NCBI GenBank assembly: GCA_965223845.1
Contig: CBDCXR010000004.1
Span: forward strand, 5,440,001-5,504,000
Source of the DNA: Planctomycetota bacterium
Lineage (GTDB): Bacteria > Planctomycetota > UBA8108 > SXIK01
Length of the DNA stretch: 64,000 nucleotides
Direction of reading: 5' to 3'
Of the stretch, positions 2,459 to 55,760 are shown piece by piece. Numbering within the stretch: position 1 is the stretch's first letter; every line of letters starts with the position of its first letter. Under the pieces are notes generated by a model. That model did no database searches, was not told the DNA's origin, and saw nothing but the letters and a program-made list of their open reading frames with translations. The translations under genes and the position numbers were made by a program.

Positions 2459-4700
<2,242 letters not shown>

Positions 4701-4707
<7 letters not shown>

Positions 4708-6275: not shown

Positions 6276-6279
6276 GACG

Positions 6280-8994: not shown

Positions 8995-9010
8995 GCGCAG
9001 GGGGGACCTA

Positions 9011-9036
9011 GAAAGAGTTTTCACCACGAAGGGCAC
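9011..9036. repeat. Truncated single arm of the REP-like family
   Basis: GAAAGAGTTTTCACCACGAAGGGCAC resembles the start of the 22421 arm (GAAGAGTTTCACACGAAGGGCGC); lies between convergent genes. Confidence 0.4.
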
Positions 9037-9042
9037 CCACAT

Positions 9043-34553: not shown

Positions 34554-34570
34554 TCGGCGAAGGAAAGACT

Positions 34571-36007: not shown

Positions 36008-36025
36008 CGGTCTCGGTGAAGATTT

Positions 36026-36271
36026 CACACGAAGAGCGCGAAGGACCGCGAAGGAAGACGAAGGAAGAGATAAGAGTAAGAGAGAGAGTGTGTGTGAGTG
36101 CGTGGAGATACTTGTAACGCCCACACCTTGGACTCGACGTCAGCCGAAACAGCATCGTTTCCGCGCAAACACGTGCGACCGCAGATCAATCTCTCTGACT
36201 TTGCTTTCTCAAATCCTCAATTCCTTGCTCTTATTTCGTCTTCCTTCGCGGTCCTTCGCTCCCTTCGTGTG
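36026..36271. repeat. REP/REPIN-like element copy 3
   Basis: Left arm 36026-36062 CACACGAAGAGCGCGAAGGACCGCGAAGGAAGACGAA; right arm 36235-36271 is the reverse complement with two mismatches; lies between convergent genes. Confidence 0.85.
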
Positions 36272-36290
36272 AATCTCACGCGTCAGAAAT

Positions 36291-39200
36291 CTACGGACAC
36301 TTGTCGTAGAGATCACACCCGAGCGAGCCGGCCGGATTTGGATCTGCACCGCACTGCCACCCGTCCTCGCCCGCGCCGTCGATCGCTGGGGGTCCGTCGC
36401 CGAAGAGTCGGTTGAGCCCGTAGATCGCGTCCGCGATGTTGTACGAGTTGTCACCGTTCAGATCACCCGCTTCGGCGCACGTCGGCGGACTTCCGTCGCC
36501 GAAGAGACCGTTCAGCATGTAGATCATGTCTGCGATGTTCACGGCGCCGTCGTTGTTGACGTCGCCGCGGCGGATCTGATCCGGCGGCGGAGGCGGCTCA
36601 CCTCCACCCAGGATGAACGCGCTCGCGAACGTGCCGTGATCGCAGCCGTCGCCTCCGTTCGAGCCGGTCGCGAGGGTCAAGTATTGCGCGCTCGAGATAT
36701 CGACCGTGATCGTTTCGCCGAAGTTGGACGTCGCGTTCGTCGTCAGCGCTTCGATGACCCCCTCCGCGTCACTACTCGTGATTACGTAGAGGTTGACGTC
36801 GCCGTTACAGCCGTCCATTCCCCACATCGTGGAGAACGTCCCCGCGGCGTCGTTCCCGTGCTCGGCGCGGATCGCAGAGAGGTCGTAGGTGATTCCCCCC
36901 GCGGAGTGAAGGCCGACCCCCGACGTGTGCGTTTGGCCACCAGTAAGGAAGCCAGCACCGTCCGCCCAGACGCCCCCGGCGGAATCGCGGAGGATGTGGT
37001 TCCAGAGCGAGCCGAAGCCGTCCTCGCTGGGGAATTCGTACTCGATTCCGCTCTGCGTGAGGAGCTGCGGCAGAATCTCGCCCGGCGGAAGATCGCGCTC
37101 CCCAAGAATGAACACACTGTCGACAAAGTCGGTCTCGTCGACAGGAGAGGGGTCGAGACCGTCGCCCTCGAAGTCCGCTTCGAAAATGTGGCCGCCGATC
37201 GGCGTTAAAGCAAAGAGCCCGTTCCGCGGATCGATGCCGATGTTCTCGGCCGGCGCCGTCCCCGTGCCGTCGCCGCCGGCGGTGATGTCCCCGAGGTGCA
37301 GAAGCCGGCCGACCGTGACCGAAATCTCAGCCTCGATGTCGCCGAGGCTAGCGGTGATCGTCGTCTGTCCGCCCTTGAGTCCCTTGATAACGCCGTCTTC
37401 GACGACGGCGACCGTCGCGTCTTCCGGCGTGAAGGTGACGTCCGCGATATCGACGACGATCGGAAGGCCCGTGAATGGATCCGGCCCGGCGAGCGTCCCC
37501 GAGACCGAGACGGCCTGCTCACCGCCGATGTCGAGCGTCACCGACGAAGGCGCGACGATCAGCTCCCCGACGTTCGTCGTATCGATGCCCTCCTCGGTAA
37601 TGCGCGCGAGCCCGAACGCGCCGTGGTCGCTTCCGATGCCGTTTCCGGCGGCGCCGACGGCGAAGGTGAGGAAGACTGCAGTCGGCGGAATCTCCATCTG
37701 GACGAGCGCGCCCGAATCCGTCGCCCCGAGAACCGCGCGGCTGTCGATGACACCGTCCGCGTCCGCGAGAATGACGTAGCTGTTGACGAGACCGTTCGGT
37801 TGCCCACTCGCCTCGCCGGCGATCGCGGAGACGAACTTCACCGCGTCTTCGCCGTGCTCGGCGCGCATCTCGTCGAGATCGAACGTAATCCCCTGTGCCG
37901 CGTGGAGACCGATCCCCTCGTCGAAGGGTCCGGCGACCCCGAAGCTCAGGCTGTCGGGACCGCCCGGTTCGCGTCCCTTGAGGATCGCTTCCCAGCCCTG
38001 CGCCGCATCGCCGTCGGCGAAGTCGAACACGATCTCTTCGGTGGAAATGACCTGGCCGACCGCTACGTCCATCACGAAGACGGAATCGATAAGCGGCGAG
38101 TCGGGAACTGGTTCCGGATTGACGAAGTTCGTATCGTTCACGTCGGCGTTGAAGCGCGCCTGGACGAACATGCCGAGGTCGGCCTCGATGCCGATGTTCT
38201 CGACCGGAGCATTCCCGATTCCGGTTCCGCCCGCGACGATGTCGCCGAGATCGATGTAACCCTTCCCCGCCACGGTCACGGCCGCTTCGGCGGAGAGCGC
38301 GCCGTTCTGCGCCGTGAGCGTTGCCTCACCGGCACCGGTCGCGGTCACGAGGCCATCGGCGCTCACGTCGACGATCCCGGCTGGATCGGCGGAATACGTC
38401 GTCCCTTCGGCGCCCGCGGTCACATCCGTCGACAAGCCGAGGTTGTCGATGCGGAGAACGCTGATCTGCGTGAACGCGCCCGGCGCGAGATCGATCGTGT
38501 CCGGCACGATGCGGAGCTCGACTGGCTCCGGCGCCTCACACACACCCGGGTCAATCTGCGCGATCGCGAACGTCCCGTGGTCGCATCCGTCCCCACCGTT
38601 TGAGCCGGTAGCGAGCGTGAGATACTCGGCGCCCGCGGGGAGATCGACCTGAAGAAACTCGCCGCCATTCTGCGTGAAGTTGCCGGAGAAACTCTCGATG
38701 ACGCCGTCCGCCTCGCTGCTCACGACCACATAGAGGTTGACGTCTCCGCCGCACGCATCCATGCCCCAAACGGTCGAAAAGCACGAGCCGCCCTCGATCC
38801 CGTGCGCGGCGCGCAGCGCGTTCAGGTCGTACGTGATTCCGCCGGCCGCGTGGAGGCCGACGCCGCTCGTGTGTTCGATCCCACCGGTGAGAAACGGGTT
38901 GCCGCCAGCCCATGCTCCTCCGGCCGAATCGCGAAGGATGTGATTCCACAGTGAGCCGAAGCCGTCGGCCGCGGGAAACTCGAACTCGATCCCGCTCTGC
39001 GTGATGCCCTGAACGATGATCTCGCCGAGATCTTCCGGCGGCTCGAGGATGAACACTGAGTCGATGAAGTCCGATTCGTCGACGGGCGACGGGTCGAGAC
39101 CATCCGCTTCGGGATCCGCCTCGGTGATGTGCCCATTGATCGGCTCCGTCGCGAACATGCCGTTCCGCGGATCGACGCCGACGTTCTCCGCCGGGGCCGT

Positions 39201-39341
39201 ACCCGTGCCGTCGCCGCCGGCGGTGACATCGCCGAGCTGAATCGTCTGCGCGGACGCGCGGTGCGCCGCCGACATGAGCAAGATCCCTAACAACAAGCAG
39301 CATCCGCACGCGAATCGGCGTACGCCGAGAGAGCGACTCAT
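36291..39341 (-). CDS. Secreted protein with three NPCBM/NEW2-like repeats, two Big_2-like Ig domains and dockerin-like module
   Basis: GGAGG RBS before ATG 39341; signal peptide ASA-Q; three repeats starting LGD(V/I)xAGG with G(V/I)GLH(A/S)AxGITxDL; VSADGLVTA..GEATLTA Ig-like; RRGDVNNDGAVNIAD tail. Confidence 0.82.
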   Translation of the reverse strand: MSRSLGVRRFACGCCLLLGILLMSAAHRASAQTIQLGDVTAGGDGTGTAPAENVGVDPRNGMFATEPINGHITEADPEADGLDPSPVDESDFIDSVFILEPPEDLGEIIVQGITQSGIEFEFPAADGFGSLWNHILRDSAGGAWAGGNPFLTGGIEHTSGVGLHAAGGITYDLNALRAAHGIEGGSCFSTVWGMDACGGDVNLYVVVSSEADGVIESFSGNFTQNGGEFLQVDLPAGAEYLTLATGSNGGDGCDHGTFAIAQIDPGVCEAPEPVELRIVPDTIDLAPGAFTQISVLRIDNLGLSTDVTAGAEGTTYSADPAGIVDVSADGLVTATGAGEATLTAQNGALSAEAAVTVAGKGYIDLGDIVAGGTGIGNAPVENIGIEADLGMFVQARFNADVNDTNFVNPEPVPDSPLIDSVFVMDVAVGQVISTEEIVFDFADGDAAQGWEAILKGREPGGPDSLSFGVAGPFDEGIGLHAAQGITFDLDEMRAEHGEDAVKFVSAIAGEASGQPNGLVNSYVILADADGVIDSRAVLGATDSGALVQMEIPPTAVFLTFAVGAAGNGIGSDHGAFGLARITEEGIDTTNVGELIVAPSSVTLDIGGEQAVSVSGTLAGPDPFTGLPIVVDIADVTFTPEDATVAVVEDGVIKGLKGGQTTITASLGDIEAEISVTVGRLLHLGDITAGGDGTGTAPAENIGIDPRNGLFALTPIGGHIFEADFEGDGLDPSPVDETDFVDSVFILGERDLPPGEILPQLLTQSGIEYEFPSEDGFGSLWNHILRDSAGGVWADGAGFLTGGQTHTSGVGLHSAGGITYDLSAIRAEHGNDAAGTFSTMWGMDGCNGDVNLYVITSSDAEGVIEALTTNATSNFGETITVDISSAQYLTLATGSNGGDGCDHGTFASAFILGGGEPPPPPDQIRRGDVNNDGAVNIADMIYMLNGLFGDGSPPTCAEAGDLNGDNSYNIADAIYGLNRLFGDGPPAIDGAGEDGWQCGADPNPAGSLGCDLYDKCP

Positions 39342-39432
39342 CTCAATCCTCCGAGAACGAGACCCAGTTCGAAACTCGACTCCAAGACCACTCAGGATGT
39401 TGCGCGCAAGGCGGCGCCGACAACCCGAAGTG

Positions 39433-39456
39433 GCGATTGTCCCCGGGGACAGTCGC
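39433..39456. promoter_or_regulatory. 24-bp near-perfect palindrome upstream of the NPCBM-like gene
   Basis: GCGATTGTCCCCGGGGACAGTCGC has one mismatched pair; lies ~90 bp upstream of ATG 39341. Confidence 0.4.
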
Positions 39457-39515
39457 GGAGGCAAACAATCCTCACCCCCTCTCGAGCGAGGAGATCGCGG
39501 AGGCGCGTCCGCCCT

Positions 39516-42500
39516 TCAGTTTCGACAGACGTACCGGGTGCAGCCCAAGAGATCCGGCGTCGGATCCGGTCCGCAGATGCTCGGCGACGGCATTTCCACT
39601 CCCCCGAAGAGGTGCTGGAGGATCGAGATCGCGTCGGAGAGGTTGATCGATTCGTCGTCGTTCGCGTCAGCGGTCTTTTGACACTGCGGCGCCGGTTCGC
39701 CCTGAAACAAATGTCCGAGGAGGCGCATGGCGTCCGCCAAGTTCACCCGGCCGTCGATGTTCGTATCGCCGCGCACGTACTCCTTCGAACGACTGATTTG
39801 TCGGCGCGACTCGTCGGTCACCGTCCCCTGTCCGATCCGAGCGAATTGTTCGTTCAGATAAAAGACTTCTTGCGTATCGAAGAGCTCGTCGGGAACGGCG
39901 ATCTCGACGACGGCGACCGGCTCAGGAAGACCGTCCATCGGGACCGGCTCGTCGAGCAGGACCCAGTAGCGGACACCGAGGTTGTGCCGACCGGCCGTAT
40001 ACACGAGTCGCCAATAGTCTTCGACGACCATCAACTCCTCCGACTCGGCGTCGAGTATGAGCTCCGCCTTGACGAGTGCCGCCGGCCCAGTCGCCGTAAT
40101 GTCCTCGACCGGCGCGAAGCGTTCGGTCATGCGGAATCGCGGACCTTCTTCCGTCAGGACCTCGACGTGCCAAAGCGGGAGCGTGTCGTAGGTGCAGGAC
40201 CGGTACTCGACGGCGAGCGGGGCTTGATTCTCTTCCTCGAGCGTCGCGTCGACAGAGACCAAGCCGGACGCGAGGAGATCACTCAGAGTCCGACGCGAGC
40301 CGGCCCCGTTCCGTGCCGGCACGCCGAACCGCAATCGGCTGAAGCGGAGGATAAGCTCTCGGCCGTCCGGCAATAGGAACGACTGCTCGTAGTCGAACTC
40401 GAAAACTGGCGACGCGGGAGTGCCGATGCGAGAAAAGCGGAAGCGGCCAGGGCTCGCCGGCTCACCGAGCACGCGCTCGGGACCGAATTCGACCGACTCG
40501 ACGAGATCGTAGTGCGTGATGCGTTGCGTCGTCGGAAGCTCGTATTCGCCCGCCGGAAGACGAATCCGGCTCTTCAGCTCGTAGGTCTCCTGCGGTTTCC
40601 GGCCGACCACGAACGCGCCGCAGAGATCGAGATCTTCCGGCACATCGACGAAGAGTGTGGGCGTCGGCGGGACCTCGGCGTTCGAGAGGAACGGCCGGAC
40701 CTGCTTGACGGCGAGCGCACCCTCTTGATCGATCTTGAACTCGACATCGAGCATGATGCTGAGTGGATTCTTGTCGCCGAGATCGAGGGGAAACTCCGCC
40801 TCGAGATGCGAGAGCAGTCGACCGAGCTCTCGCAGCTGCTCGTCGTCGAGCACGGACTCCCCGGGCGCAGTCAATGACGACGATGCGGAGCGCTCGATGT
40901 CGATCACCTCACCGTTCTCGAGACTGAGCAGTGTTTTCTCCGGGATCTCCCCCGGTTCGGGGCTCACGACGCTTCGCTCGCCGATCTGGGCGGTGATGAT
41001 GAAGCGTTCGTCGAGAACGTCGAGGGGATTGCCCGTGAATGCGACTCCGTTCGCTCTCTCACTAGAGAACGCGCGGCTGACGAGAATTCCCATCCCCACT
41101 CGGTCCTGCGGCACGGAGAAAAACTCGCGCTCTTCGAACGCGCGGAAGTTCCACAGGCTCGCCCAGACGATCCGGAGCGCACGCGCGACACCCCGCTCGT
41201 CCCGCCGCGCGGCGTCGCAGTGAGAGGGACCGTTCGCGTCCGCGTCGAGGTCATCGGCCGCGCAGCCCGATGTCGACGCATAGAGCCCCGCACCGTTGAA
41301 CTCGAGCGCGTCTTCGACGTTCGACGAGGAGCGAAACCGAACGGCGTTTTGAGTGCTCCCGAACTCGGTCGCGATCTTGAGCGCGATTCGCCGAACGAGG
41401 CTTCCGTCGACGACACTTTCGTTCTCGATGTGCTCGCGCAAGTTCTTCAGCGCATCGAAGCGAAACGCCGGGCTCGTACGAAACTCGTTGTCGTCGAGAA
41501 GCTCCGCGACGTACTCCGCGTAGGAGACTTCGCGGCCCTCGTCGAGATACGACGGGATCCGATTGGACTCCATGAACTCGAGGTAGGGCTGGATGGGGAT
41601 CGCGAAGCCCCGCGCGCGGTACCGTTCGAATTCGCCGGTCATCACCGTCTGCATGACGGCGAAATTCGTCGCCTTTCCTCCGAAGCGTCTCACGGCGTTC
41701 CCGAGCTCAGCTTGAGCGGCGATAGCTTCGAGTCCGGTCAGATCCGAGTACTCGAGATCGATCTCGGGTGCGACCGAGAGCTGCTTTCGGTTCTCTCTCC
41801 ACCAGCGCTCCGCCTCCTCGACGTTCGCGCGCCCGACGGTGTACGTTTCGTCGGTCACCTCGAGTCGAACGAGCTCGCCGTCGTGGGCAGCGAACGCCGC
41901 GGCGGCGTTCCGAACGAAGGCATTCGGCGTCCCACGCCGAGCCGTCCGGATCGCGAGGTGACTCAGCTCGCCTTGAGGCTCCCCGGTGATCACTCCTCCG
42001 ATCACTCCTTCGATGTCGCGCGGCGATCGTTCGAGAACGAGGATCTCCTGAAAGCTGATTCCGCCGGCTTCGTTGAGAGCGCGGAACCCGTCTGCATCCA
42101 AGACTCGCACTCGGCCGTAGGCAACACCCGATGTGTACGGAATGAACTCGACGCCGCTCGTAAACTCTTCGAACACGACGGGGAAGTCGACATCTCCCCA
42201 GCTCTCGGCGTTCTCGCGCGTCGCCTCGTCGGCGGGAAAGTAGACGAGCTCTCCGAGCGGCAGAAGCGGCTCGAGCTGCGCGTAGAGCGCGGCGACTTCG
42301 TCGCGCCGCGGGAGCTCGCGCGCGTCCGCGTCGTAGCCCGTGATCACGTGGAATCCGTACAGGCGCTTCGAATCGATCCGGAGCTGATACAGATTGCCGA
42401 TGAAATAGTCGCGCGTCGCCCGCCTCGAGACCAGCTGCTCGTAAACTTCGAACGTAAGCCCATCGAAGCGCTCGGGGAACGTCTCGCGAAGGAACTCGAG

Positions 42501-44882
42501 GTGGAGGTCGAACTGCCACACGTTCTGAAACGCGACCGGGAGAAGAGCTGGATCTCCTGCGCGAGCGGGCGCGGTGAACTTCGTGAGTCGCTCCACACGT
42601 TCGGAGCTGCGCACGGGAATGGAGATCTTGCCGAAATCTACCGCAGTACAAATCTTCTCGAGATGGGAAACGTCGACATCACGCGAGCGGTTGAGAAAAA
42701 CGCTCACCGCATTCCCCTGACGATTCGTCGCGACGACGTCGGTGCGGCCATCGCCGTCGAGATCTCCCCCGCCCGCCCAGCGGATCTCTCCCCGCGCCTG
42801 AAGGAGAATCGGCGGCAGAAACTCGCCTCCAGGGGAGTTGAGGAGAACGCGGACCGCCGAGTCCGAAACGCTCCCGCCCACGATGTCTATGCGGCCGTCG
42901 CCGTCGACGTCGAGCGGCGTGATGCCGAAGAGATTGCTTCGAGTGCTCAAGAGCCCTCCGAGCTCGAACAGTCCGGCGCCCTGGTTCCAGATCAGATGGA
43001 TGCCGCCCCCTTGGAAGTCCGTCGCTGCGAGGTCCGGATCGCCGTCGCCGTCGAAGTCCGCCGAAGCGATCGCGAACGCGCCCCCGACGCGAATCGCGTT
43101 TCGCGAAACGAACTTCCGCGACTCGATCTGCTCGTTGAGGACGACCCCGGTACCGGTGACAACCGCGATGTCGGGAAGCCCATCGCCGGTCAGATCGCGG
43201 ACGACGTGGCTCCAGCCGTTCACACCCAAGCGTCCGATCGCCTCGTACTGAAAGTCCGGACCAAAGTACGTCCCGAGAGCTGGGCCCGAGGCGACGATGT
43301 CGCGCTCGCCGTCGAGATCGAGATCGATCGGGGTGACCACTTGGCTTCGAAAGCGTGTCGGCCCGCGCGTGAACCGACCTTGACCGTTGTTGAGAAGCAG
43401 AGTTCCGGTCTCCGGAGCGAAGATATCGACATCGCCGTCTGGCTCGAAGTCACCGATCTGAAAGAGATGAACGTCCGGAACCGAATAGCGCTCGGTAACC
43501 GCGATCTTTCCGGTGCCGTCGTTCATGAAGATCGCGATCGAGGGAGGCCGAATCGCCGCGGCGACGTCCTCGTCTCCGTCTCCGTCGAAGTCGGCGACCG
43601 CCCCCCAGTGCGCGAGCGAGATCGGATAGTGGACCGGCTCGAACTCGAGCACCCGAACCGGCGGCGCGTCGTGACGAGATTCGGCGTAAACGAGACCGTC
43701 CGTCACCGCGACGATGTCCGGTACGCCATCTCGGTTGATGTCGGCGCTGGCGGGCCGCGCAAGCGCGGTGGTCGTGAAGATCCCCGAATCGGCGAAGGAC
43801 TCGATCTCTCCCTCGGAATCGCCGCGAAGAAAACCGAGCCGGCGGTCGTTGCCAAGAGTAAGCGCGATGTCGAGGTCGCCGTCGAGATCCGCGTCGAAGA
43901 CCTTCGCACCCGTGGCGCGGTCGAGCTTGACCGAAGTCGAACCGGTAAAGCCGCCGGCGCCGTCTCCCAGGTACACTTCCGCGCGCGTCGTCGTGACGAC
44001 GACGAAGTCGAGGTCGCCGTCGCCATCCCAATCGGTCGGGATGAGCGTCTTCAGCGATCTCTCTCCGACGGGAAACGCCGCCCCTTCGGTGAATCGCCCC
44101 GCGCCGTCGCCGGCGTAGATCGTGACATCGTCTGAAGCGGTCGAGACGGCCGCCACGTCGATGAACTCGTCCCCGGTAAACTCACCGAGTGCGGTCATCG
44201 TCACGGCGTCCTTGACGGGAGTCTCGATCCCTTCGCCGAGCCCGTCTGGCCCCCCCGCAAAAAACGTGATGAAATCGGCGCGCCGAAGATTGATGAGAAC
44301 ATCATCGAATCCGTCGCCGTTGACATCACCGATCGACGTATCGCGCGGATCCGCCGAGAGCTCCAGCCGCGACTCCTCGCGCCAAAAGCTCTCGCCTTCC
44401 CCCGCGTTGTTCTCGAGGTAAATCGCTCCGAAACTCCCCCACACGACGAGATCGGAGTACCCGTCCCCGTTGACGTCTCCAGTGGCCATCTTCGACGGGC
44501 GCGCGGAGAGTTCCATGGTTTCCGCGCGAGTGAGCTCGCCGCTCGGATCACTCGTCCACGTGCGGATCAGACTCCCCTCGGCGGCACTCGCGAGTAGAAC
44601 TATGTCGGGAGAGTCGTCGCCGTTCGCGTTGGCCATGACGACTGCCGACGCGCGACTCTCCGCCGGGATGATCAGAGACTTTGCCCGGTACGCGATCGGC
44701 GTGCCTTGGCACTCGTCCGGAATCCCGTCCTCGTTGCAATCGGCACTCGTCGCGGCGGCGATATCGTCGTCGTCTTCGACGCCGTTCAGATTGCAATCCG
44801 CCGCGTCGAGGGTCGAAGCCGCGACGGCGAGACAGACCCCCAACCACGCCCCGCGGACACAGAGTGATGGACGACTCGTCAT
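39516..44882 (-). CDS. Secreted FG-GAP repeat / phosphohistidine + PPDK_N ATP-grasp (dikinase-like) / dockerin-like protein, paralog 1
   Basis: Signal peptide LDA-A; DCNxxG repeats; many DxDGDGxxD FG-GAP repeats; GELSHLAIRTARRGTP; FGGKATN; RFRSSSNVED..GAGLY; VWASLW; DVEFK..KQVRP; RGDTNIDGRVNLAD tail. Start ATG 44882. Confidence 0.85.
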   Translation of the reverse strand: MTSRPSLCVRGAWLGVCLAVAASTLDAADCNLNGVEDDDDIAAATSADCNEDGIPDECQGTPIAYRAKSLIIPAESRASAVVMANANGDDSPDIVLLASAAEGSLIRTWTSDPSGELTRAETMELSARPSKMATGDVNGDGYSDLVVWGSFGAIYLENNAGEGESFWREESRLELSADPRDTSIGDVNGDGFDDVLINLRRADFITFFAGGPDGLGEGIETPVKDAVTMTALGEFTGDEFIDVAAVSTASDDVTIYAGDGAGRFTEGAAFPVGERSLKTLIPTDWDGDGDLDFVVVTTTRAEVYLGDGAGGFTGSTSVKLDRATGAKVFDADLDGDLDIALTLGNDRRLGFLRGDSEGEIESFADSGIFTTTALARPASADINRDGVPDIVAVTDGLVYAESRHDAPPVRVLEFEPVHYPISLAHWGAVADFDGDGDEDVAAAIRPPSIAIFMNDGTGKIAVTERYSVPDVHLFQIGDFEPDGDVDIFAPETGTLLLNNGQGRFTRGPTRFRSQVVTPIDLDLDGERDIVASGPALGTYFGPDFQYEAIGRLGVNGWSHVVRDLTGDGLPDIAVVTGTGVVLNEQIESRKFVSRNAIRVGGAFAIASADFDGDGDPDLAATDFQGGGIHLIWNQGAGLFELGGLLSTRSNLFGITPLDVDGDGRIDIVGGSVSDSAVRVLLNSPGGEFLPPILLQARGEIRWAGGGDLDGDGRTDVVATNRQGNAVSVFLNRSRDVDVSHLEKICTAVDFGKISIPVRSSERVERLTKFTAPARAGDPALLPVAFQNVWQFDLHLEFLRETFPERFDGLTFEVYEQLVSRRATRDYFIGNLYQLRIDSKRLYGFHVITGYDADARELPRRDEVAALYAQLEPLLPLGELVYFPADEATRENAESWGDVDFPVVFEEFTSGVEFIPYTSGVAYGRVRVLDADGFRALNEAGGISFQEILVLERSPRDIEGVIGGVITGEPQGELSHLAIRTARRGTPNAFVRNAAAAFAAHDGELVRLEVTDETYTVGRANVEEAERWWRENRKQLSVAPEIDLEYSDLTGLEAIAAQAELGNAVRRFGGKATNFAVMQTVMTGEFERYRARGFAIPIQPYLEFMESNRIPSYLDEGREVSYAEYVAELLDDNEFRTSPAFRFDALKNLREHIENESVVDGSLVRRIALKIATEFGSTQNAVRFRSSSNVEDALEFNGAGLYASTSGCAADDLDADANGPSHCDAARRDERGVARALRIVWASLWNFRAFEEREFFSVPQDRVGMGILVSRAFSSERANGVAFTGNPLDVLDERFIITAQIGERSVVSPEPGEIPEKTLLSLENGEVIDIERSASSSLTAPGESVLDDEQLRELGRLLSHLEAEFPLDLGDKNPLSIMLDVEFKIDQEGALAVKQVRPFLSNAEVPPTPTLFVDVPEDLDLCGAFVVGRKPQETYELKSRIRLPAGEYELPTTQRITHYDLVESVEFGPERVLGEPASPGRFRFSRIGTPASPVFEFDYEQSFLLPDGRELILRFSRLRFGVPARNGAGSRRTLSDLLASGLVSVDATLEEENQAPLAVEYRSCTYDTLPLWHVEVLTEEGPRFRMTERFAPVEDITATGPAALVKAELILDAESEELMVVEDYWRLVYTAGRHNLGVRYWVLLDEPVPMDGLPEPVAVVEIAVPDELFDTQEVFYLNEQFARIGQGTVTDESRRQISRSKEYVRGDTNIDGRVNLADAMRLLGHLFQGEPAPQCQKTADANDDESINLSDAISILQHLFGGVEMPSPSICGPDPTPDLLGCTRYVCRN

Positions 44883-44991
44883 AGCGCGGCCCCCCGCTGG
44901 TTGCGCCGGCATCGTCACCCGCGGCCTCCCGAACCCTTCGCCTCCACTGTGACCGCGGCGCGCGGGTCTCGCCATCAGATTTCGCGCTCGG

Positions 44992-47900
44992 TCAGGGAAT
45001 CCGCGGGCAGTCGTAGCGCCGGCAGTCGAGTCGATCCGGGGTCGGGTCCGGCTCACACCCGGACGGAGGCGGCATCGGAACGCCGCCGACGAGATGCTGA
45101 ATGATCGCGAGCGCGTCGGAGATGTTGACCGCCGCATCGTCGTTTGCGTCGGCCGTCTTGAGGCACAGAGGCTCGCGCTCCGGGCCGAACAGATGGCCGA
45201 GAAGGTAGATCGCGTCGCTGAGATTCACCGATCCGTCGGCCGTCGCGTCGCCGCGCACGAAACTCGCCTGGACGCTGAGCTCTCGACGAATCGACGAGCG
45301 AACCGCCGCCTCTCGAACGAGTTGGAAGCGCTCGCCGAGGTACCGCACTCTTCCGCGAGGAAAGAGTTCATCGGGGACGGAGACGTCGATGAATGCGATC
45401 GGACCTCCGATTCCCGACACGGTCACGGGTTCCTCGAGGACGATCCAATACCGCACGCCGAGGTTGTGACGGCCGGCAGTGTAGACAAGCCGCCAGTAGT
45501 CGCGAACGGTCTGCCTTTCGTGCCCGCGGAACTGAATCTCCGCCTCGACGAGCTCCGCGAGTCCCGTCTCCTCGATGTTCTCCTTCGGCTCGAAGCGTTC
45601 GGTAAAGACGAAGCGATCCGCGGCGTCTGTCGTCACCTGAACTAGCCAGAGAGGTAGAAAATCGTACGAGCACGAACGAAAGGAGAGCGCGAGCGGCGGT
45701 TCGCCCGCCTCGGCAACGACACCGTCGAAGAGAACTGAACGAGAGAGGCGCTCATCGGAAAGCTCGAGCGGGCGGCGAGCGACACCCTCTCTCGGAAGGG
45801 CGAACTCGAGACCGCTCAGACTGAGCGCGAGCTCGCGGCCGTCGTCGAACCGAAGCGTCTGCTCGTACTCGAAACGAAAGCGCGGTGCCCCCGTAGTTCC
45901 GACACGCGCGAGGCGAAACAGTCCGGGGCCGAGCGGCTCTCCCCGGGCGCGATTCTGTCCGAGCTCGACCGAGAGGACGAGATCGTGCTGGATCGTCCGC
46001 TGCGATGTCGGAAGCGAGAACTCGCCCGCGCGGAGTCGGAGACGACCCTTCAGCTCGTACGCGGCTCGCGGGTCGCGACCGACGACGAAGGCGCCGCAGA
46101 GCTCCGTGCCGGGCGGGATCGCGATGGAAAACGTCGGGCTCGGCGGCGCCTCGACGTTCGACAGAAACGGGCGCACTTGCTTCACCGCGAGCGCTCCCTC
46201 GCGGTCGATCTTGAACTCGACGTCGAGGAGGACGCGAGCGGGATCCACTTCGCCGAGCTCGAGCGGGAACGTCTCGACGAGGTGGGCAAGAAGTCGGCCG
46301 AGCTCGCGGAGCTGGTCGTCGGTGAGAACGGGATCACCCGGTGCGGCGAGAGACGACGGCGCCGAACGCTCGATGTTCGTCACTTCGCCCGCGGTCACCT
46401 CGAGAAGCGTTCGCTCTGGGATTTCCCCGGGCTCCGGACTCACGACACTCCGCTCGCCGACTTGCGCCGTCACGATGTAGCGGCCATCGAGAAGGTCGAG
46501 AGGATTCCCGGTCAGCGCGACGCCGTTCGCGCGCTCGTCCTGGAACGCCTTGCTCACGAGAATTCCCATTCCGACCCGATCGTGATCGACCGAGAAAAAC
46601 TCGCGCTCCTCGAAGGCGCGAAAGTTCCACAAACTCGCCCAGACTACGCGGAGCGCTCGTGCGATTCCGCGTTCGTCGCGCCTCGACGCATCGCAGCGCG
46701 ATGGACCATTTGCGTCCGCATCGAGATCATCGGCCGCGCAACCCGACGTCGACGCGTAAAGACCCGCCCCACTGAACTCGAGTGCGTCCTCGACGTTCGA
46801 CGAGGAGCGGAATCGCACCGCCGCTTCCGTCGCTCCGAACTCGGTTGCGACCTTGAGCGCAACGCGGCGGACAAACGCGGGGTCGACGACCCCGTTCTCG
46901 ACCATCTCCTCGCGAAGAACGCGGAGCGCGCTAAAGCGATACGCGGGATCCGTGCGAAATCGATCGTCGACGAGGAGCTCAGCGACGAACTCCGCGTAGG
47001 ACACATCGCGCGTCTCGTCGATGAACGAGGGACGGCGGTTCTCGCGCATGAAGTCGAGATAGTGCCGCATCGGGATCGCGAACCCGCGCGCGCGGTAGTG
47101 CTCGAAATCGCCCGTGAGCGCGGTCTGAAGCTTCGCGAAATTCGCAGCCTTTCCGCCGAAGCGACTCTCGGCGACTCCGGTCGCGGCCTGGATCGCGATC
47201 TCCGCTAACGAATCGAGCGATTCGTACTCTTCGTCGAGGTTCGGGTCCGTCGACAGTTTGCGCCGGTTCTCTTCCCACCAGCGCTCCGCCTCGTCGACGC
47301 TCGCTCGATCGATCGAGTATCCGTCCTCCGTGACTTCGAGACGGATGAGCTCGCCATCGAGCTCGGCGAACGCCTGAGCTGCGCCCCGAACGAACGCGTT
47401 CGGCGTCCCGCGCCGCGCGGTTCGGATCGCAAGGTGGCTCAACTCGCCTTGAGCCTCCGCGGTGATCACTCCGCCGACGACACCTTCGATGTCGCGCGGC
47501 GAGCGCTCGAGGACGAGGATCTCCTGAAAGCTGAACTCTCCCGCGTCGTTCGCCGCGACAAACTCGGCCGCGTCGAGAACGCGGACGCGGCCGAACGTGA
47601 CGCCGGTCGTGTACGGGATGAATTCAACTCCCGAATTGATCTCGGCAAAGTGAATCGGAAACTCGACCTCACCCCAACCCTCGGCATTCTCGCGCGTGGC
47701 GGCGTCCGCCGGGAAGTAGACGAGCGGCCCGAGGGGAAGTAGCGGCGCCAGCCTCGCGTAGAGATCGGCGATTTCCTCGCGCCGGGGAAGCTCGCGAGGA
47801 TCGGCATCGTAACCCGCGATGACGTGAAAACCGTAGCTGCGCCCGACGTCCGTGCGGATTTGATAGACGTTTCCTATGAAGTACTCTCGCGTCGCGCGGC

Positions 47901-50355
47901 GGGAAACGAGTCCTTCGTACTCGCCCGGCGTCAGAGCACCGAATCGATCGGGAAACGTCTCCTTGAGGAATTCGAGATGGAGATCGAATCTCCAGACGTT
48001 CTGAAAAGCGACGGGGAGGAGAGCCGCATCGCCGCTCCGAACGGGTGCGATGAACTTCGTGACGCGCTCGATCGTGCTCGATCCATGCACCGGGATCGAG
48101 ATCGAGCTGAAGTCGAGCTCGGTGCAGATTTCCGTCCGGTGCGACACGTGCACGTTGCGCGTCCGGTTGAGGAACACGCTCACGGCGCTTCCTCTGCGAT
48201 TGGCGACGACGATGTCGCTCCGGCCGTCACCGTCCATGTCGCCGGGTCCGGCCCAGCGGGGCTCGCCGGGAACGGGAATGCGGACCGGCGGTTGAAATCC
48301 GCCGTTCACTCCGCCGAGGAACACGCGGACGAGATCATCGCCGATGCTCGCCGCAACGAGATCCGTACGCCCATCGCCGTTGGCCTCGAATGGCCTGATC
48401 CCGAACACGCCAGGGATGCGATGGGGCACGAGCTCAACGATCCACTCGAGCGCGCCCTCGTTCCACAAAAGAGTGAGATCACCGGATTCGACGTCCGACG
48501 AAATGAGGTCGACGTCGCCGTCGCGATCGAAATCCGCAGACGCGAGATGAGTCGCGCCACTGACCGGGACCTGGTGCCGCACGACGAATCGGCGAGCCTC
48601 GGTCTGCTCGAACACGAACACGGTCGACCCTCGGATGGTTGCCAGGTCAGCGAGCTCGCTTCCCAGGAGGTCGTCCGCAACTAGCGCCAACTCACGCGCA
48701 CCGAAGCTCGCGATCTCGCTGTACTCGAGCTCCGGACCGTATCGGACGCCGAGCCCGGGCGCGGCGCTGGCGATGTCCACGTGACCGTCCCGGTCCACGT
48801 CGAGGACTCGGACGATTCGGCCGCTGAACACCCTGCGCTCGAGCTCGAAGACACCCGAGCCATCGTTCAGAAAGACAGAAGACGCCTCCGGAACGAGAAG
48901 ATCGAGATCCCCATCGAAATCGATGTCGACGATCTGGAAGAAGTGCACCGAGTCGACGGAGTACGATTCGATCGGCCTTAGATTCCCCGCACCGTCGTTC
49001 CGGTAGACTTGAAGCGCTGGAGGTCGAATCGCGGCGACCACATCGAGATCACCGTCGCCGTCGAGGTCGCCGGTCTCCCCCCAATGAGCGAGCTCAATCG
49101 GGTAGTGGGTCGGGTCGAACTCGAGGGGAGTCACCGGCGCGGCGTTGCCGCTCGACGTCGCGAGCGAGACGCCGCGCCCGAGGACCGCAACTTCCGGAAC
49201 TCCATCACCATTCAAGTCGGCGCTCGCCGGTGAAGTGAACGCCGCGTCCGAGGACAAGCCGCTGTCGACCAGGGATTCGATCGTCGATGCGTTCCCATTG
49301 CGAAGAAAGGAAAGCCGCCGGCTGCCGCCCGAGGTGATCGCGATGTCGGGGTCGCCGTCGTGATCGACGTCGAAAACGTCCGCGCCGGTGGCTCGCTCGA
49401 GCGGCACTGCCCCCGAGCTGCGAAAATTCCCGGCGCCATCGCCGCGATAGACCTCCGCGCGATCGAACGTGACGAGAGCGAGATCGAGCGCTCCGTCTCG
49501 GTCCCAGTCGACGGGCCGAAGCGTCTTGATCGCCGTCGGGCCGATCGGAAACGCGGTGTGTTCGACGAAACCCCCGTTTCCGAGCGAAGCGTAGATCGTC
49601 ACGTCGTCCGAAACCGTCGACACCGCGGCGACGTCCAGGCGCTCGTCGCCCGTGAACTCACCGAGAGCGGTAAACGTGACGCCCTCCTTGATCGGTGTGG
49701 CCACAGGCTCGCCGGGCCCTCCTGCCGTACCCGGAACGAACGCGAGCTCGCCCGTGCGGCGAGTGCTAGCGACCCAATCGACAAAACCGTCGCCTTCGAC
49801 GTCGCCCGTGACGATCCACTGCGGAGACTCGGGAGTCGTGACGAGCATCGCTTCGCGAAAGAAATGCTCGGAGTCGCCGGCCGTATTCTCGACGTATCTC
49901 GCGCCGAAGGATCCGTAGACGACGATGTCGTCGAGGCGATCGCCGTTGAAGTCTCCGACGGCCATCTTCCTCGGGGCGTCGGAGAGCTTGATCGCGTCCG
50001 CGCGCGAGAGACGGCCGCTCGCGTCACTCGTCCATACGTCGAGGCGGGACTCGCCTCCTTCGGTCGTGAGCACGATGAGGTCTGCGTGTGCGTCCGCGTC
50101 TACGCGTCCGAACGCGATGGCGTTCGCCTTGATCTCGCCCGGAAGAGGGGTCTCGAGCTCGTACGGAGTCGGCGTGCCCTGACACTCGTCGGGAACGAGG
50201 TCGCCGTTACAGTCTTCGATCGTCCCATCGGCGATGTCTTGAACATCGCTGATGCCGTTTAGATTGCAGTCGGCCGCCCATGCGACCGCAGCGAGACCCA
50301 CGAAACACCACACCCCGGCAACCCGTGACACTCGGAATCCGTGACGATGCGTCAT
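44992..50355 (-). CDS. Secreted FG-GAP / dikinase-like / dockerin-like protein, paralog 2
   Basis: Same architecture and motifs as paralog 1 (SHLAIRTARRGTP, FGGKAANF, RSSSNVED, KQVRPF); signal peptide AWA-A. Confidence 0.85.
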   Translation of the reverse strand: MTHRHGFRVSRVAGVWCFVGLAAVAWAADCNLNGISDVQDIADGTIEDCNGDLVPDECQGTPTPYELETPLPGEIKANAIAFGRVDADAHADLIVLTTEGGESRLDVWTSDASGRLSRADAIKLSDAPRKMAVGDFNGDRLDDIVVYGSFGARYVENTAGDSEHFFREAMLVTTPESPQWIVTGDVEGDGFVDWVASTRRTGELAFVPGTAGGPGEPVATPIKEGVTFTALGEFTGDERLDVAAVSTVSDDVTIYASLGNGGFVEHTAFPIGPTAIKTLRPVDWDRDGALDLALVTFDRAEVYRGDGAGNFRSSGAVPLERATGADVFDVDHDGDPDIAITSGGSRRLSFLRNGNASTIESLVDSGLSSDAAFTSPASADLNGDGVPEVAVLGRGVSLATSSGNAAPVTPLEFDPTHYPIELAHWGETGDLDGDGDLDVVAAIRPPALQVYRNDGAGNLRPIESYSVDSVHFFQIVDIDFDGDLDLLVPEASSVFLNDGSGVFELERRVFSGRIVRVLDVDRDGHVDIASAAPGLGVRYGPELEYSEIASFGARELALVADDLLGSELADLATIRGSTVFVFEQTEARRFVVRHQVPVSGATHLASADFDRDGDVDLISSDVESGDLTLLWNEGALEWIVELVPHRIPGVFGIRPFEANGDGRTDLVAASIGDDLVRVFLGGVNGGFQPPVRIPVPGEPRWAGPGDMDGDGRSDIVVANRRGSAVSVFLNRTRNVHVSHRTEICTELDFSSISIPVHGSSTIERVTKFIAPVRSGDAALLPVAFQNVWRFDLHLEFLKETFPDRFGALTPGEYEGLVSRRATREYFIGNVYQIRTDVGRSYGFHVIAGYDADPRELPRREEIADLYARLAPLLPLGPLVYFPADAATRENAEGWGEVEFPIHFAEINSGVEFIPYTTGVTFGRVRVLDAAEFVAANDAGEFSFQEILVLERSPRDIEGVVGGVITAEAQGELSHLAIRTARRGTPNAFVRGAAQAFAELDGELIRLEVTEDGYSIDRASVDEAERWWEENRRKLSTDPNLDEEYESLDSLAEIAIQAATGVAESRFGGKAANFAKLQTALTGDFEHYRARGFAIPMRHYLDFMRENRRPSFIDETRDVSYAEFVAELLVDDRFRTDPAYRFSALRVLREEMVENGVVDPAFVRRVALKVATEFGATEAAVRFRSSSNVEDALEFSGAGLYASTSGCAADDLDADANGPSRCDASRRDERGIARALRVVWASLWNFRAFEEREFFSVDHDRVGMGILVSKAFQDERANGVALTGNPLDLLDGRYIVTAQVGERSVVSPEPGEIPERTLLEVTAGEVTNIERSAPSSLAAPGDPVLTDDQLRELGRLLAHLVETFPLELGEVDPARVLLDVEFKIDREGALAVKQVRPFLSNVEAPPSPTFSIAIPPGTELCGAFVVGRDPRAAYELKGRLRLRAGEFSLPTSQRTIQHDLVLSVELGQNRARGEPLGPGLFRLARVGTTGAPRFRFEYEQTLRFDDGRELALSLSGLEFALPREGVARRPLELSDERLSRSVLFDGVVAEAGEPPLALSFRSCSYDFLPLWLVQVTTDAADRFVFTERFEPKENIEETGLAELVEAEIQFRGHERQTVRDYWRLVYTAGRHNLGVRYWIVLEEPVTVSGIGGPIAFIDVSVPDELFPRGRVRYLGERFQLVREAAVRSSIRRELSVQASFVRGDATADGSVNLSDAIYLLGHLFGPEREPLCLKTADANDDAAVNISDALAIIQHLVGGVPMPPPSGCEPDPTPDRLDCRRYDCPRIP

Positions 50356-50607
50356 GCGGGCCCTCCGATGCTTTCGGGCGGAAAGGTCGACCCGGACTCA
50401 CCGGTCCACTTTGACCGCTGTTTCGAAGCGGGGCCAGGAGTATTCGGCTTCAGAGACCGAGTCCAGCTCCACCGGCTGACGGGCCCGGGACGGGCACGCC
50501 AGGATTCCGGGCAGGCTGAGCTCGAACTGTCGTTCCCTTCAACAGAGCCCGAAGTCGACGGAGCGCTTCGGGATCCGTCGATCGGCCCCTTTTTCGGAGG
50601 ACGACCC

Positions 50608-52434
50608 ATGAACGGCATGATTCTCTCGCGATCAACCGGAACGCACGCCCGACGCACGGCCGTCGGCGCACTCGTCGCGTTTCTCTTCGCCGGCGGTGCG
50701 ATCGCACACGCGCAAACCCCGTACGTCCGCGGCGACACGAGCGGCGACGGCATCGTCGACATCACAGACGTGACAAGCTACGTCACGTATTACTTTCAGG
50801 GCGCCGCGTCAACCGCGGCGTCCATGGAGGCGTACGACGTGAACGGCGACGGCGCCCGGTCGCTCACTGACCTCATCCACCTCTCGCGCCACCTCTTTCT
50901 GAACGGCGATCCGATCCCCGCGCCCTTCCCGTCGCCGGGGACCGTCCCTCCGCCCGTCGTACCAGACCGCGAAGACTTCGTAACGTTCCAGATCGAAGAC
51001 GGCGTCGCCGCTCCGGGTGGGAGCGTCACGATTCCGGTCTACATGACGTACAAGCCTCACCTCTCGCCGCCGCCGCCCGTCGCTTCGTACACGGTCGGAG
51101 TCGAATTCAACGCAAGCGACTTGAAGCTTTCGTCGATCACGATCCCGCCGACGATCGCGGCGCTCAACCCGGAGCTCGCGCATCCGATGATCCGCACGGG
51201 CGAAGCACGGCTCACCGTGCTCTTCGATGCTCGGCGGATCGACGTCGGCCTCGCCCCTGCCGACAATCTGCCGATCGCACTCCTTCACTTCGATGTCGAC
51301 TCGTCGACGACGAACACCGAAACCGAGATCAGAATCACGGACACCGTTTTCGCCGGTACGTCCGCGTCCGCTTCCGACCGGAGCCTCTACACCGAGGCAT
51401 CGATCGGCGGACGAATGGTCCGTCCGCGCAGAATTCGCGGACGGATCTTCATCGATCAATCCCTCAGCTTTGTTCGCGGCGACATCTCTCGCGATGGACT
51501 GCTCGATATCACCGACATGGTGCAGCTCCTCCGCGCCCTCTCCATGACCGGAGATCTCCTCGGTGAGCACGCTGCGGCCGACGTCAACGATGACGGCATG
51601 TACTCCTTCGGCGATGTCTACTTCGGCATGTTCCACTCCTTCGGTCTCGTGTCTGTTCCGCCCGTTCCGGCCCCGCACCCGACGGCGGGTACGGCGCCTC
51701 TCAAGCCGCTTCCCGTCCGCTCGCATCTCGACGAGCTCAAAATCGACGATGGCGAGCTCGTCCGCGGCCACCACGAGGTGATCCAGGTGAAGATGACGAC
51801 CAGCTCCCCGGTCGACGGGTTCACCGTCTCGCTCACCTACGACCCGGCGCGCATCACGGTCCACAAGGTCGACATCAGCGCGGGCCTCACCCCCCCGGCG
51901 GCGATCCAGCCGGTCATCGTCCACAACGCGACCCGCGGCTGGATCCTCGTCACGACACCCCTCGATCGCGAGATTCCCGCCACAGCGAACTTTCCGCTCG
52001 TCGACATCGAGGTCGAACCGATCGATTTCACCGAGGCGTACCACCACATCTGCTTCCGCGACGCGTTCCTTCCGCCGCTCAGCTACAACGAGCTCATGCA
52101 GCTCCGCGCCACCGGAGGTAGTGTGCGCCCGCTTCTCAACTCGGGTACGTTCGCGAACGTCGTCCCGTTCCGACGCGGCGACTGCAATGCCGACGGCCGC
52201 TTCGACATCGCTGATGCCGTAACGATGCTCAACTGCCAGTTCGGAAACCAGATCTGCCAGTGCTTCGACGCTTGCAACGTGAACGACGATCCCTGGTTCG
52301 ACATCTCCGACCCGATCTACGCTCTCAACTACCAGTTCTCGACCGGGCCGGCGCCACGTGCGCCCTTCCCGAATTGCGGGCTCGATCCGACTCCGGATCC
52401 GTTTCCGTTCTGTTCGCGGTCAAGCTGCCCCTAA
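50608..52434 (+). CDS. Candidate scaffoldin/adaptor: dockerin-cohesin-dockerin-cohesin-dockerin-like
   Basis: GGAGG RBS; signal peptide AHA-Q; three RGDxxxDGxxDIxD duplicated Ca-loop modules separated by two ~150-aa beta-rich domains (APGGSVTIPVYM..ASYTVGVEFNASDL; EVIQVKM..DGFTVSLTYDPARI) resembling cohesins. Confidence 0.72.
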   Translation: MNGMILSRSTGTHARRTAVGALVAFLFAGGAIAHAQTPYVRGDTSGDGIVDITDVTSYVTYYFQGAASTAASMEAYDVNGDGARSLTDLIHLSRHLFLNGDPIPAPFPSPGTVPPPVVPDREDFVTFQIEDGVAAPGGSVTIPVYMTYKPHLSPPPPVASYTVGVEFNASDLKLSSITIPPTIAALNPELAHPMIRTGEARLTVLFDARRIDVGLAPADNLPIALLHFDVDSSTTNTETEIRITDTVFAGTSASASDRSLYTEASIGGRMVRPRRIRGRIFIDQSLSFVRGDISRDGLLDITDMVQLLRALSMTGDLLGEHAAADVNDDGMYSFGDVYFGMFHSFGLVSVPPVPAPHPTAGTAPLKPLPVRSHLDELKIDDGELVRGHHEVIQVKMTTSSPVDGFTVSLTYDPARITVHKVDISAGLTPPAAIQPVIVHNATRGWILVTTPLDREIPATANFPLVDIEVEPIDFTEAYHHICFRDAFLPPLSYNELMQLRATGGSVRPLLNSGTFANVVPFRRGDCNADGRFDIADAVTMLNCQFGNQICQCFDACNVNDDPWFDISDPIYALNYQFSTGPAPRAPFPNCGLDPTPDPFPFCSRSSCP

Positions 52435-55520: not shown

Positions 55521-55760
55521 TCGTTGGCTCAGAGGAGTGTGGAGAGGGCTCGCGAGGAAGGCAGTACGCGGCTGAGACCGAGACGCTCCATCATCTCGCC
55601 TCGAGCGCGAAATCACGAATCCGTTTTGCGAGCGCGGCGAATCCGGATCCCGGCCCGCAATCGCCGTACCGAACGGGCGGTCGACGCGATGCTAGGCGTT
55701 CGCACAACCGGGTGACCCGCTTGTTCGGTGTTTGAGCGGGCGCGCGGAGTCGCGTCGCGG

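Follow-up and report, generated by a model that had tools for sequence, protein, structure and literature searches.

Candidate exported histidine-swivel dikinases with FG-GAP propellers and a dockerin tail in a Planctomycetota bacterium

The window analysed here is a stretch of 64,000 nucleotides from a Planctomycetota bacterium (assembly GCA_965223845.1, contig CBDCXR010000004.1, positions 5,440,001 to 5,504,000), in which two uninterrupted tandem paralogous open reading frames (ORFs), gene A and gene B, lie on the minus strand as read from the ORF list and its translations. Each encoded protein comprises, in this order, a predicted signal peptide, an estimated 14 FG-GAP blades, a 166-residue alpha/beta domain (the N-domain), a swivel domain with a putative catalytic histidine, a PPDK_N ATP-grasp domain, an all-beta domain (the C-domain) and a dockerin with a Cys-rich tail. 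Our favoured explanation, held with about as much doubt as belief, is that these genes encode exported, probably surface-docked histidine-swivel dikinases whose core is formed by the N-domain, the swivel His domain and the ATP-grasp. An earlier observation on the two genes, made from the letters of the DNA and referred to here as the first-pass annotation, is confirmed: both paralogs are real, with intact minus-strand ORFs and Pfam domains found in each.

Gene B (44992-50355, minus strand) is an uninterrupted ORF of 1787 aa with Pfam domains, on record as a single protein (P0002). Its paralog, gene A (39516-44912, minus strand), has 1798 aa in the recorded form (P0003). The longest ORF of gene A spans 39516-45137 and overlaps the end of gene B; translation probably begins instead at 44912, which yields the 1798-aa form, or at 44882 (MTSRPSL..., 1788 aa), leaving an intergenic gap of 79 or 109 bases respectively. 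Identity between the two proteins is 71.7% in the N-domain, 76.6% in the His domain and 73.3% in the ATP-grasp, with 49.0% in the propeller region, 50.0% in the beta C-domain and 61.1% in the tail. GC content is even across the window (0.60-0.67). The genome, of 7.93 Mb in 4 contigs, carries five copies of this family and also encodes an ordinary PEP (phosphoenolpyruvate) synthase and an ordinary PPDK (pyruvate, phosphate dikinase) of its own. The sequencing runs listed as containing this DNA are four DNA runs of a single study, with none of RNA. NCBIfam returned only far sub-threshold PEP synthase matches on the window proteins, and a sequence search of the PDB gave matches for the ATP-grasp and the dockerin only.

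The ATP-grasp is the best supported element of the core. PPDK_N was matched at 65.1 bits in gene A (E 8.9e-18) and 61.4 bits in gene B (E 1e-16) against a cut-off of 27, and together with its linker it covers 46150-47253 in gene B (minus strand, residues 1035-1402, the linker being helical) and 40674-41777 in gene A (minus strand). The motifs GGKA, RFRSSSNVED..GAGLY, VWASLW and EFK..KQVRP, listed by the first-pass annotation, are all there, and their key residues are invariant in an alignment of 49 diverse family members (alignment A1). From this alignment an AlphaFold model of gene B residues 745-1787 was predicted with good confidence (mean pLDDT 92.3, pTM 0.74). Model residues 299-658, the ATP-grasp, superpose in VIA-align on rifampin phosphotransferase (RPH) 5hv1_A with Z 28.2 (rmsd 2.4, 295 residues aligned), on HpeI with Z 20.5 and on maize PPDK with Z 13.5. 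The best Foldseek matches of this domain were RPH (E 5.7e-15), PEP synthase, HpeI and PPDK, and a profile match to PEP synthase 8a8e was found at E 6.5e-15.

Invariant positions in A1, in alignment numbering, are H230 (H974 of gene B), R238, G323 and K325 of the GGK motif, R437, R439, S440, E445 and D446 of RFRSSSNVED, E636 and K638, and K648, Q649 and R651. The register of the profile alignments to PEP synthase and RPH equates K325 with RPH Lys22, R439 with Arg117 and E636 with Glu297; in gene B numbering these are K1069, R1183 and E1380, nucleotide and Mg contacts that are invariant in 49 of 49 sequences. As far as the available text of PMC4844700 goes, Lys22 and Arg117 of RPH are phosphate contacts needed for resistance and Glu297 is a Mg ligand. 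The ATP-grasp also bears a family-specific loop of 20 residues that includes the columns of Cys1206 and Cys1221 in gene B, which may form a disulfide-type pair.

The swivel His domain lies directly before the ATP-grasp, at 47254-47625 in gene B (minus strand, residues 911-1034) and at 41778-42149 in gene A (minus strand). The phospho-histidine motif GELSHLAIRTARRG claimed earlier is found in both genes with the His codons exactly at 47434-47436 (H974, the putative catalytic His of gene B, invariant in 49/49 aligned sequences) and 41958-41960 (gene A). In the model this domain (residues 167-290) matches the PEP-utilizer-type C-terminal domain of Bacillus stearothermophilus pyruvate kinase with Z 10.3 (rmsd 2.6, 99 aligned), and VIA-align gave Z 9.4-10.1 against Enzyme I N-domains and Z 7.3 against the phosphoryl carrier domain of PPDK. 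Its predicted fold thus shows moderate matches to four phospho-carrier or swivel domains (Z 7.3-10.3). The order of His domain before ATP-grasp proposed earlier holds at fold level, since the swivel (167-290) precedes the ATP-grasp (299-658). The absence of a pyruvate-binding TIM barrel holds as well: neither PEP-utilizers nor PEP-utilizers_C (PF02896) matched either gene, and in the model the ATP-grasp is followed by an all-beta domain. The features that mark a general swivelling-histidine dikinase of the PPDK_N superfamily are in this way present together, with PPDK_N over its cut-off, the contacts kept and an invariant His in a swivel domain.

Two regions had been overlooked by the first-pass annotation, a conserved 166-residue N-domain before the His domain and a beta domain of about 290 residues between the ATP-grasp and the dockerin. 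The N-domain spans 47626-48123 in gene B (minus strand, residues 745-910), where it is the proposed acceptor site, and 42150-42647 in gene A (minus strand, 72% identical to that of gene B). In the model it is compact, with five strands, five helices and a very short link to the His domain; folded alone from 63 sequences it gave a pLDDT of 93.4 and a pTM of 0.87, and K767, H793, R823, G828 and P882 are invariant in those sequences. No structural relative was recovered: against 48,161 representative chains VIA-align gave a best Z of 3.9 and none at Z>=5, Foldseek gave nothing at E<=0.001 (best E 0.32), and Pfam gave no match. The N-domain occurs in every length class of the family, and a profile search of proteins of 85-301 aa for stand-alone forms gave one partial record of 143 aa only. 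By position it would correspond to the acceptor-side domain of other dikinases, and it is this domain, not the propeller, that is the conserved partner of the His domain. The all-beta C-domain spans 45271-46149 in gene B (minus strand, residues 1403-1695, strands only in the model) and 39795-40673 in gene A (minus strand, placed by alignment to gene B). It gave only weak VIA rows in the whole-model search (Z 7.6 and 7.3), with no Pfam match and no Atlas match.

The N-termini of both genes read as Sec signal peptides, with a basic n-region, a hydrophobic core of 14-16 residues and a small-residue cleavage site (AWA/AD in gene B). In gene B the putative signal peptide covers about residues 1-27 (50275-50355, minus strand), MTHRHGFRVSR followed by VAGVWCFVGLAAVAWA, with cleavage before AD and a crude hydrophobicity score of 2.35. 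Both candidate starts of gene A retain the hydrophobic segment. Among family proteins beginning with M, V or L, 185 of 219 have a signal-like N-terminus under a crude test (an 11-mer with mean Kyte-Doolittle >=1.8 starting in the first 40 residues), the 34 failures being mostly clipped signal peptides, fragments or starts inside a later domain. All five copies of the window genome have such an N-terminus, the fifth from an internal Met. Conserved cysteines point the same way: seven of the eight Cys in gene B residues 745-1787, C1206 and C1221 included, stand in columns that are 83-100% Cys. The export signals claimed earlier are in this manner extended to the whole family, and the FG-GAP calcium loops, the dockerin and the paired Cys would all fit an extracytoplasmic location.

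Between signal peptide and N-domain, gene B residues 28-744 (48124-50274, minus strand) comprise a Cys-rich CNxNG..DCN..PDEC motif and then the FG-GAP region, matched by FG-GAP_3 and FG-GAP. The repeats had been claimed for both paralogs, and FG-GAP_3 is over its Pfam cut-off in each, with 172 bits in gene A (E 3e-51, 9 stretches) and 181 bits in gene B (E 5.7e-54, 7 stretches); Pfam FG-GAP was also matched. The gene B region has seven strict DxDxDG-type loops, and a spacing of about 49 residues suggests some 14 blades. At the other end stands the dockerin with its Cys-rich tail, at 44995-45270 in gene B (minus strand, residues 1696-1787) and 39519-39794 in gene A (minus strand). Dockerin_1 (PF00404, cut-off 22.9 bits) was exceeded by gene A (24.8 bits), which also gave a phmmer match to dockerin 2y3n_B at E 5e-4, and missed by gene B (20.6 bits); model residues 952-1025 of gene B match dockerins in VIA-align at Z 8.7-10.2, the best being 5m2o_B (Z 10.2, rmsd 1.6, 70 residues). 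The dockerin is assigned by score in gene A and by fold in gene B.

This family is large. A word-indexed search gave 297 relatives at about 50% identity, named 'VCBS/FG-GAP repeat-containing', 'PEP/pyruvate-binding domain-containing' or 'hypothetical'. In an exhaustive HMMER search, the query of gene B residues 745-1700 matched 2678 cluster representatives at E<=0.001, of which 971 passed E<=1e-30, so the earlier guess that uncharacterised bacterial relatives exist proved right, these clusters being without a functional name in their sources. Three main length classes stand out: about 1800 aa (propellers and all), about 1070-1100 aa (no propellers, the core following the signal peptide and leading on to beta domain and dockerin) and about 700 aa (a match limited to query positions 4-655). 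The core is also embedded in proteins of 3336 aa and 6419 aa. Because the two shorter classes lack propellers, the propellers can be taken as accessory; these propeller-less forms and the lower identity between the paralogs (49-50%) make propellers and C-domain variable add-ons, which plausibly serve target recognition. Matches to PF12256 in relatives fall within the FG-GAP-like part.

A survey of loci that took a single genome from each species yielded at least 598 matching stretches, of which 590 were confirmed; 75 loci were kept. By title, 48 of these are Planctomycet-, 3 Verrucomicrobi-, 3 Omnitrophota, 9 Myxococcales, Deltaproteobacteria, Nannocystis or Anaeromyxobacteraceae, 1 'proteobacterium', 1 'Enterobacteriaceae' and 10 just 'bacterium'; at least 22 of the kept loci come from a single assembly of 9.18 Mb. 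In an even sample of the phylum the core was found at E<=1e-20 in 10 of 201 Planctomycetota genomes (7 of the 129 of high quality), and the family is patchy, not universal. The fifth copy of the window genome (G000:C4:6442570-6444276; 651-2822 of locus L086) is an ORF of 723 aa with a core 35% identical, placed in a deep sub-clade of forms of about 660-750 aa (100/99 in the tree). Since its signal peptide begins at an internal Met, the start given in the annotation probably lies too far upstream. A literature search, with most subscription journals outside its reach, turned up no paper on a dikinase that is exported or fused to FG-GAP repeats. One candidate, an Omnitrophota preprint, was set aside, as it concerned selenide, water dikinase instead.

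The closest known layout is that of glucan, water dikinase (GWD1) and phosphoglucan, water dikinase (PWD; EC 2.7.9.4 / 2.7.9.5), which share the order of binding modules, middle domain, phospho-His swivel and PPDK_N. The His segment of gene B had one Pfam match, GWD1_pHisD (PF22973), at 13.3 bits and E 0.065, below the cut-off. His segments were also cut from the 75 loci, and 70 were kept after dropping two where the match starts too late and three with stops or a missing motif. Of these 70 segments, 56 gave PF22973 at E<=1 in one constant register, with 9 below E 0.001 and a best score of 24.6 bits, and PEP-utilizers matched 3 of the 70, always more weakly than PF22973. Searched against the whole window genome at E<=10, PF22973 hit four places only, all of them His domains of the family and not the PEP synthase or PPDK of this organism.

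True GWD homologues, with PF22973 over its cut-off (49-116 bits), were found in 6 of the 201 sampled Planctomycetota genomes as tandem pairs of about 1170-1260 aa. One such pair (locus L082, G135:C1:3042000-3053500, ORFs 5951-9505 and 2440-5949, both minus strand) lies beside a starch-synthase-like glycosyltransferase. One protein of the pair comprises Ig_N_CWD1 (E 3.9e-33; of the type of carbohydrate-binding module CBM45), GWD1_pHisD and PPDK_N, and the other AP_endonuc_2 (a xylose-isomerase-like TIM barrel), GWD1_pHisD and PPDK_N; neither has a signal-like N-terminus. BLASTP of the gene B core against the AP_endonuc_2 protein gave one collinear alignment (query 201-556, subject 748-1057; 28% identity over 363 columns, E 2e-15) running from the His motif through into the ATP-grasp, and against the Ig_N_CWD1 protein short separate pieces only. 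In the alignment the Cys-bearing ATP-grasp loop is absent from the GWD homologue and specific to the exported family.

Further likenesses to GWD are the LSH..R.R His motif on a short helix and an acidic residue about 19 positions upstream, which in the BLASTP alignment falls opposite the acid of EEIP in the GWD homologue. According to the available part of the StGWD1 description (PMC13553574), that enzyme has two CBM45, an all-helical central domain (residues 483-926, 444 residues, 20 helices), a His domain (H992) with a short link before and a helix after it, and an ATP domain whose superposition is better with RPH than with PPDK. Of these traits the window proteins have the His domain with its link and helix, the ATP domain and the closeness of the latter to RPH. 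They differ in having no CBM45 (Ig_N_CWD1) or CBM20 (no Pfam match at E<=0.01) and a middle domain of 166 alpha/beta residues in place of the bundle of 444 residues and 20 helices given in the same source. The window proteins are also read as exported, with Cys pairs, propellers, a beta domain and a dockerin, whereas GWD is plastidial or cytosolic. The GWD-type layout proposed in the first-pass annotation therefore stands in part: the order of His domain and ATP-grasp, the lean of 56/70 segments to PF22973 and the collinear alignment are for it, while the CBM45 or CBM20 modules, the helical domain and a PF22973 score over the cut-off are missing. Filing the genes as GWD was rejected, there being no CBM45 or helical central domain, PF22973 below its cut-off and an ATP-grasp clade of their own.

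That clade was seen in an IQ-TREE phylogeny of the ATP-grasp (LG+C20+F+G4, 40 rows), the kind of tree proposed earlier, which comprises 28 family members, four planctomycetal GWD homologues, two PEP synthases, four PPDKs and two other PPDK_N proteins. A GWD-like copy with an internal stop, four unclear PPDK_N proteins and 29 of the 49 A1 rows were left out, and the rows include no plant GWD or RPH. The family (99/97), the GWD-like proteins (100/98) and the PEP synthases (100/99) were each recovered. The family is a separate deep clade, not nested in the GWD-like one; forcing both into a single clade costs 4.41 log-likelihood units and is not rejected by the approximately unbiased (AU) test (p-AU 0.261).

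The two other groups of known dikinases share domains with the window proteins and differ in their arrangement. RPH and its kin (phenolic phosphate synthetase, HpeHI) supply the best structural match of the ATP-grasp and the same Lys, Arg and Glu nucleotide contacts, and turn ATP and an acceptor into AMP, Pi and phospho-acceptor via a swivelling His. RPH differs in its order of ATP-grasp, substrate-binding domain and C-terminal His domain, and these enzymes are cytoplasmic with small-molecule acceptors. PEP synthase and PPDK share the PPDK_N ATP-grasp and the fold class of the swivel His, but their order is ATP-grasp, His and PEP/pyruvate TIM barrel; in the window the order is reversed and there is no barrel. 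Planctomycetal secreted proteins with a dockerin tail, at least five others of which lie in the window, have the same dockerin and Cys-rich tail; here, however, the cargo is a putative ATP-dependent phosphotransferase module and not a hydrolase, lectin or adhesin.

Under the favoured explanation, a three-step dikinase in the style of GWD and RPH, Mg-ATP would be bound by the ATP-grasp and its beta-phosphate attacked by the invariant His (H974 in gene B), giving AMP and a pyrophosphoryl-enzyme whose gamma-phosphate would be lost to water. The phospho-His domain would then swing onto the adjacent 166-residue N-domain, where the invariant Lys, His and Arg may help to pass the phosphate to a hydroxyl of an extracytoplasmic substrate. 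This substrate would be held or selected by the faster-diverging propellers and the beta C-domain, and the enzyme would be anchored by its dockerin tail. Folds, domain order, conserved catalytic residues, export-type features and family size are what the data show; we infer the catalysis, the swivel to the N-domain, the origin of the ATP and the nature of the acceptor, for which a polymer is a guess; the phosphorylation of a polymer recognised by the propeller, as proposed in the first-pass annotation, is pure conjecture.

Several points weigh against this explanation. Neither the periplasm nor the surroundings of the cell would be expected to contain ATP, and the locus gives no hint of a source beyond the cytoplasm. 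The call of the signal peptides was made by eye and with a crude score. The acceptor role of the N-domain is drawn from its position and conservation, in a domain without a structural relative. The 27-bit cut-off of PF22973 was reached by none of the family, the window genes scoring 13.9 and 12.2 bits and the best relative 24.6. The central branch of the tree puts the family with a very long PPDK branch and the GWD-like proteins with PEP synthase (94/85, not starred). Finally, no conserved neighbour hinting at a substrate was seen: tblastn of 13 window neighbours against the 75 loci gave, beyond the tail, only scattered sulfatase and PSD1 matches in five loci each, and Pfam on the neighbours at 10 loci from other phyla gave no recurrent partner.

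The missing ATP supply, as the main weakness of a forward dikinase, leads to the alternative that the module is no such enzyme outside the cell. It may run the reverse reaction or use another nucleotide or donor, taking phosphate from a phosphorylated polymer, or it may have turned into a module that binds or senses nucleotides. PPDK can work in both directions according to the available text of PMC5371819. We nevertheless consider this unlikely, because the His and all checked ATP and Mg contacts are strictly invariant in 49 diverse sequences, which argues for retained catalysis, and the literature consulted holds no precedent for it among GWD-type or RPH-type enzymes. The same chemistry could instead act on a small molecule (an antibiotic, a polyphenol or another hydroxylated compound) at the cell surface, for detoxification or uptake. 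The nearest solved ATP-grasps are those of RPH (Z 28.2) and HpeI (Z 20.5), enzymes which phosphorylate small hydroxylated molecules according to the available part of PMC13553574, and an N-domain of 166 residues is small for a polymer groove. The RPH-type domain order is however not present, and propellers, beta domain and dockerin suit large or surface-bound targets. At least 22 loci with variable binding modules in one genome are a better fit to diverse macromolecular targets, and the ATP problem is unchanged, so that a small-molecule acceptor seems to us distinctly unlikely.

The ATP might also belong to another cell. Released or displayed, the enzyme would then act on prey, host or lysed cells or inside them, modifying envelope polymers, for instance, during predation or scavenging, and not in ATP-free water. 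Relatives in Myxococcota and Omnitrophota, besides Planctomycetota and Verrucomicrobiota, and the core inside proteins of 3336 aa and 6419 aa are in favour of this, and a preprint on the giant genes of predatory bacteria lists, in its available part, PPDK_N among the 20 most frequent domains of its protein set. We hold it very unlikely, as there is no sign that the organism of the window is a predator, the PF12256 matches of relatives lie in the FG-GAP-like part, and Pfam and NCBIfam scans of both proteins gave no injection or translocation domain. Highly improbable, finally, is that the proteins are cytoplasmic and the signal peptides mis-read start regions. The way the signals were called and the ambiguous start of gene A leave room for it, but the hydrophobic segment is kept at both starts and is present in 185/219 relatives. 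Conserved paired Cys, Ca-binding FG-GAP loops and the dockerin point outside the cytoplasm, and the cytoplasmic GWD homologues are without these export features.

The genes around the pair comprise further proteins of the dockerin-tailed kind. P0228 (36291-39464, minus strand) lies downstream of gene A across a gap of 51 bases. It combines a signal peptide with three repeated modules of NPCBM type, one Ig-like domain and the dockerin tail, and is possibly co-transcribed with both dikinase genes. P0227 (50341-52434, plus strand), divergent from gene B, has three dockerin-like EF-hand pairs (Dockerin_1 E 1.6e-12), two cohesin-like beta modules (Cohesin 19.9 bits, cut-off 24.1), the same Cys-rich tail and, behind an upstream extension, a signal-like N-terminus; it looks like a small scaffoldin. 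A complex prediction of the gene B dockerin tail with the cohesin-like residues 205-360 of P0227 scored 0.02, which is uninformative either way. In the 1494-aa product of the gene at 22772-27256 (plus strand), Lamin Tail Domains, a CotH kinase domain and PKD domains are combined with this dockerin tail, and the protein appears to be a second type of ATP-using kinase that is exported. In locus L054, one of the 10 loci examined, a minimal dikinase has a CotH protein two genes away. The tail of about 90 residues, a dockerin and CG.DPTPD..C...C, ends both dikinases and the products of 36291-39464, 50341-52434, 32883-34553, 29157-32396 and 22772-27256, that is, besides the dikinases, the NPCBM protein, the dockerin/cohesin-like protein, two Laminin_G_3 proteins and the CotH-kinase protein. 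It was found by tblastn in 47-49 of the 75 related loci and looks like a tag shared across this lineage for sorting or anchoring. The flanks are ordinary for a planctomycete: PSCyt2/PSD1 (DUF1549/DUF1553) at 61353-63953 (minus strand), a sulfatase at 34526-36007 (plus strand) and an S15 X-Pro dipeptidyl peptidase at 53655-55616 (minus strand). A scan of 36000-51000 gave no promoter-like sites (1.2 expected) and 13 terminator-like sites (11.5 expected), and is uninformative.

The known histidine-swivel dikinases (PEP synthase, PPDK, GWD and PWD, rifampin and phenol kinases) are cytoplasmic or plastidial. What is new here is an apparently intact dikinase that, by sequence and model, would be exported as a rule and is joined to adhesin-like propellers and to a module for docking, in a family expanded to thousands of sequence clusters without a functional name in their sources. 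A wider picture, which we find rather doubtful, is that these bacteria add phosphate to an insoluble or recalcitrant polymer outside the cytoplasm, either at their own cell surface or within an enlarged periplasm, loosening it before hydrolysis as plants do with starch via GWD. Paralog sets of 5 to more than 20 would then vary propellers and beta domains for each target, the N-domain would be a new kind of phosphoryl-acceptor site, and an extracytoplasmic supply of ATP would have to exist in Planctomycetota and relatives. The N-domain, without a solved relative, is a concrete target for structure determination and mutagenesis, and the true GWD homologues of other Planctomycetota are a natural comparator. 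Should the enzymes be active at the place to which they seem to be exported, these bacteria would have ATP or a different nucleotide donor outside the cytoplasmic membrane, or else the enzymes would work on the contents of other cells. Attaching phosphate covalently to external substrates would in that case add a new step to the handling of polymers by Planctomycetota and their relatives.

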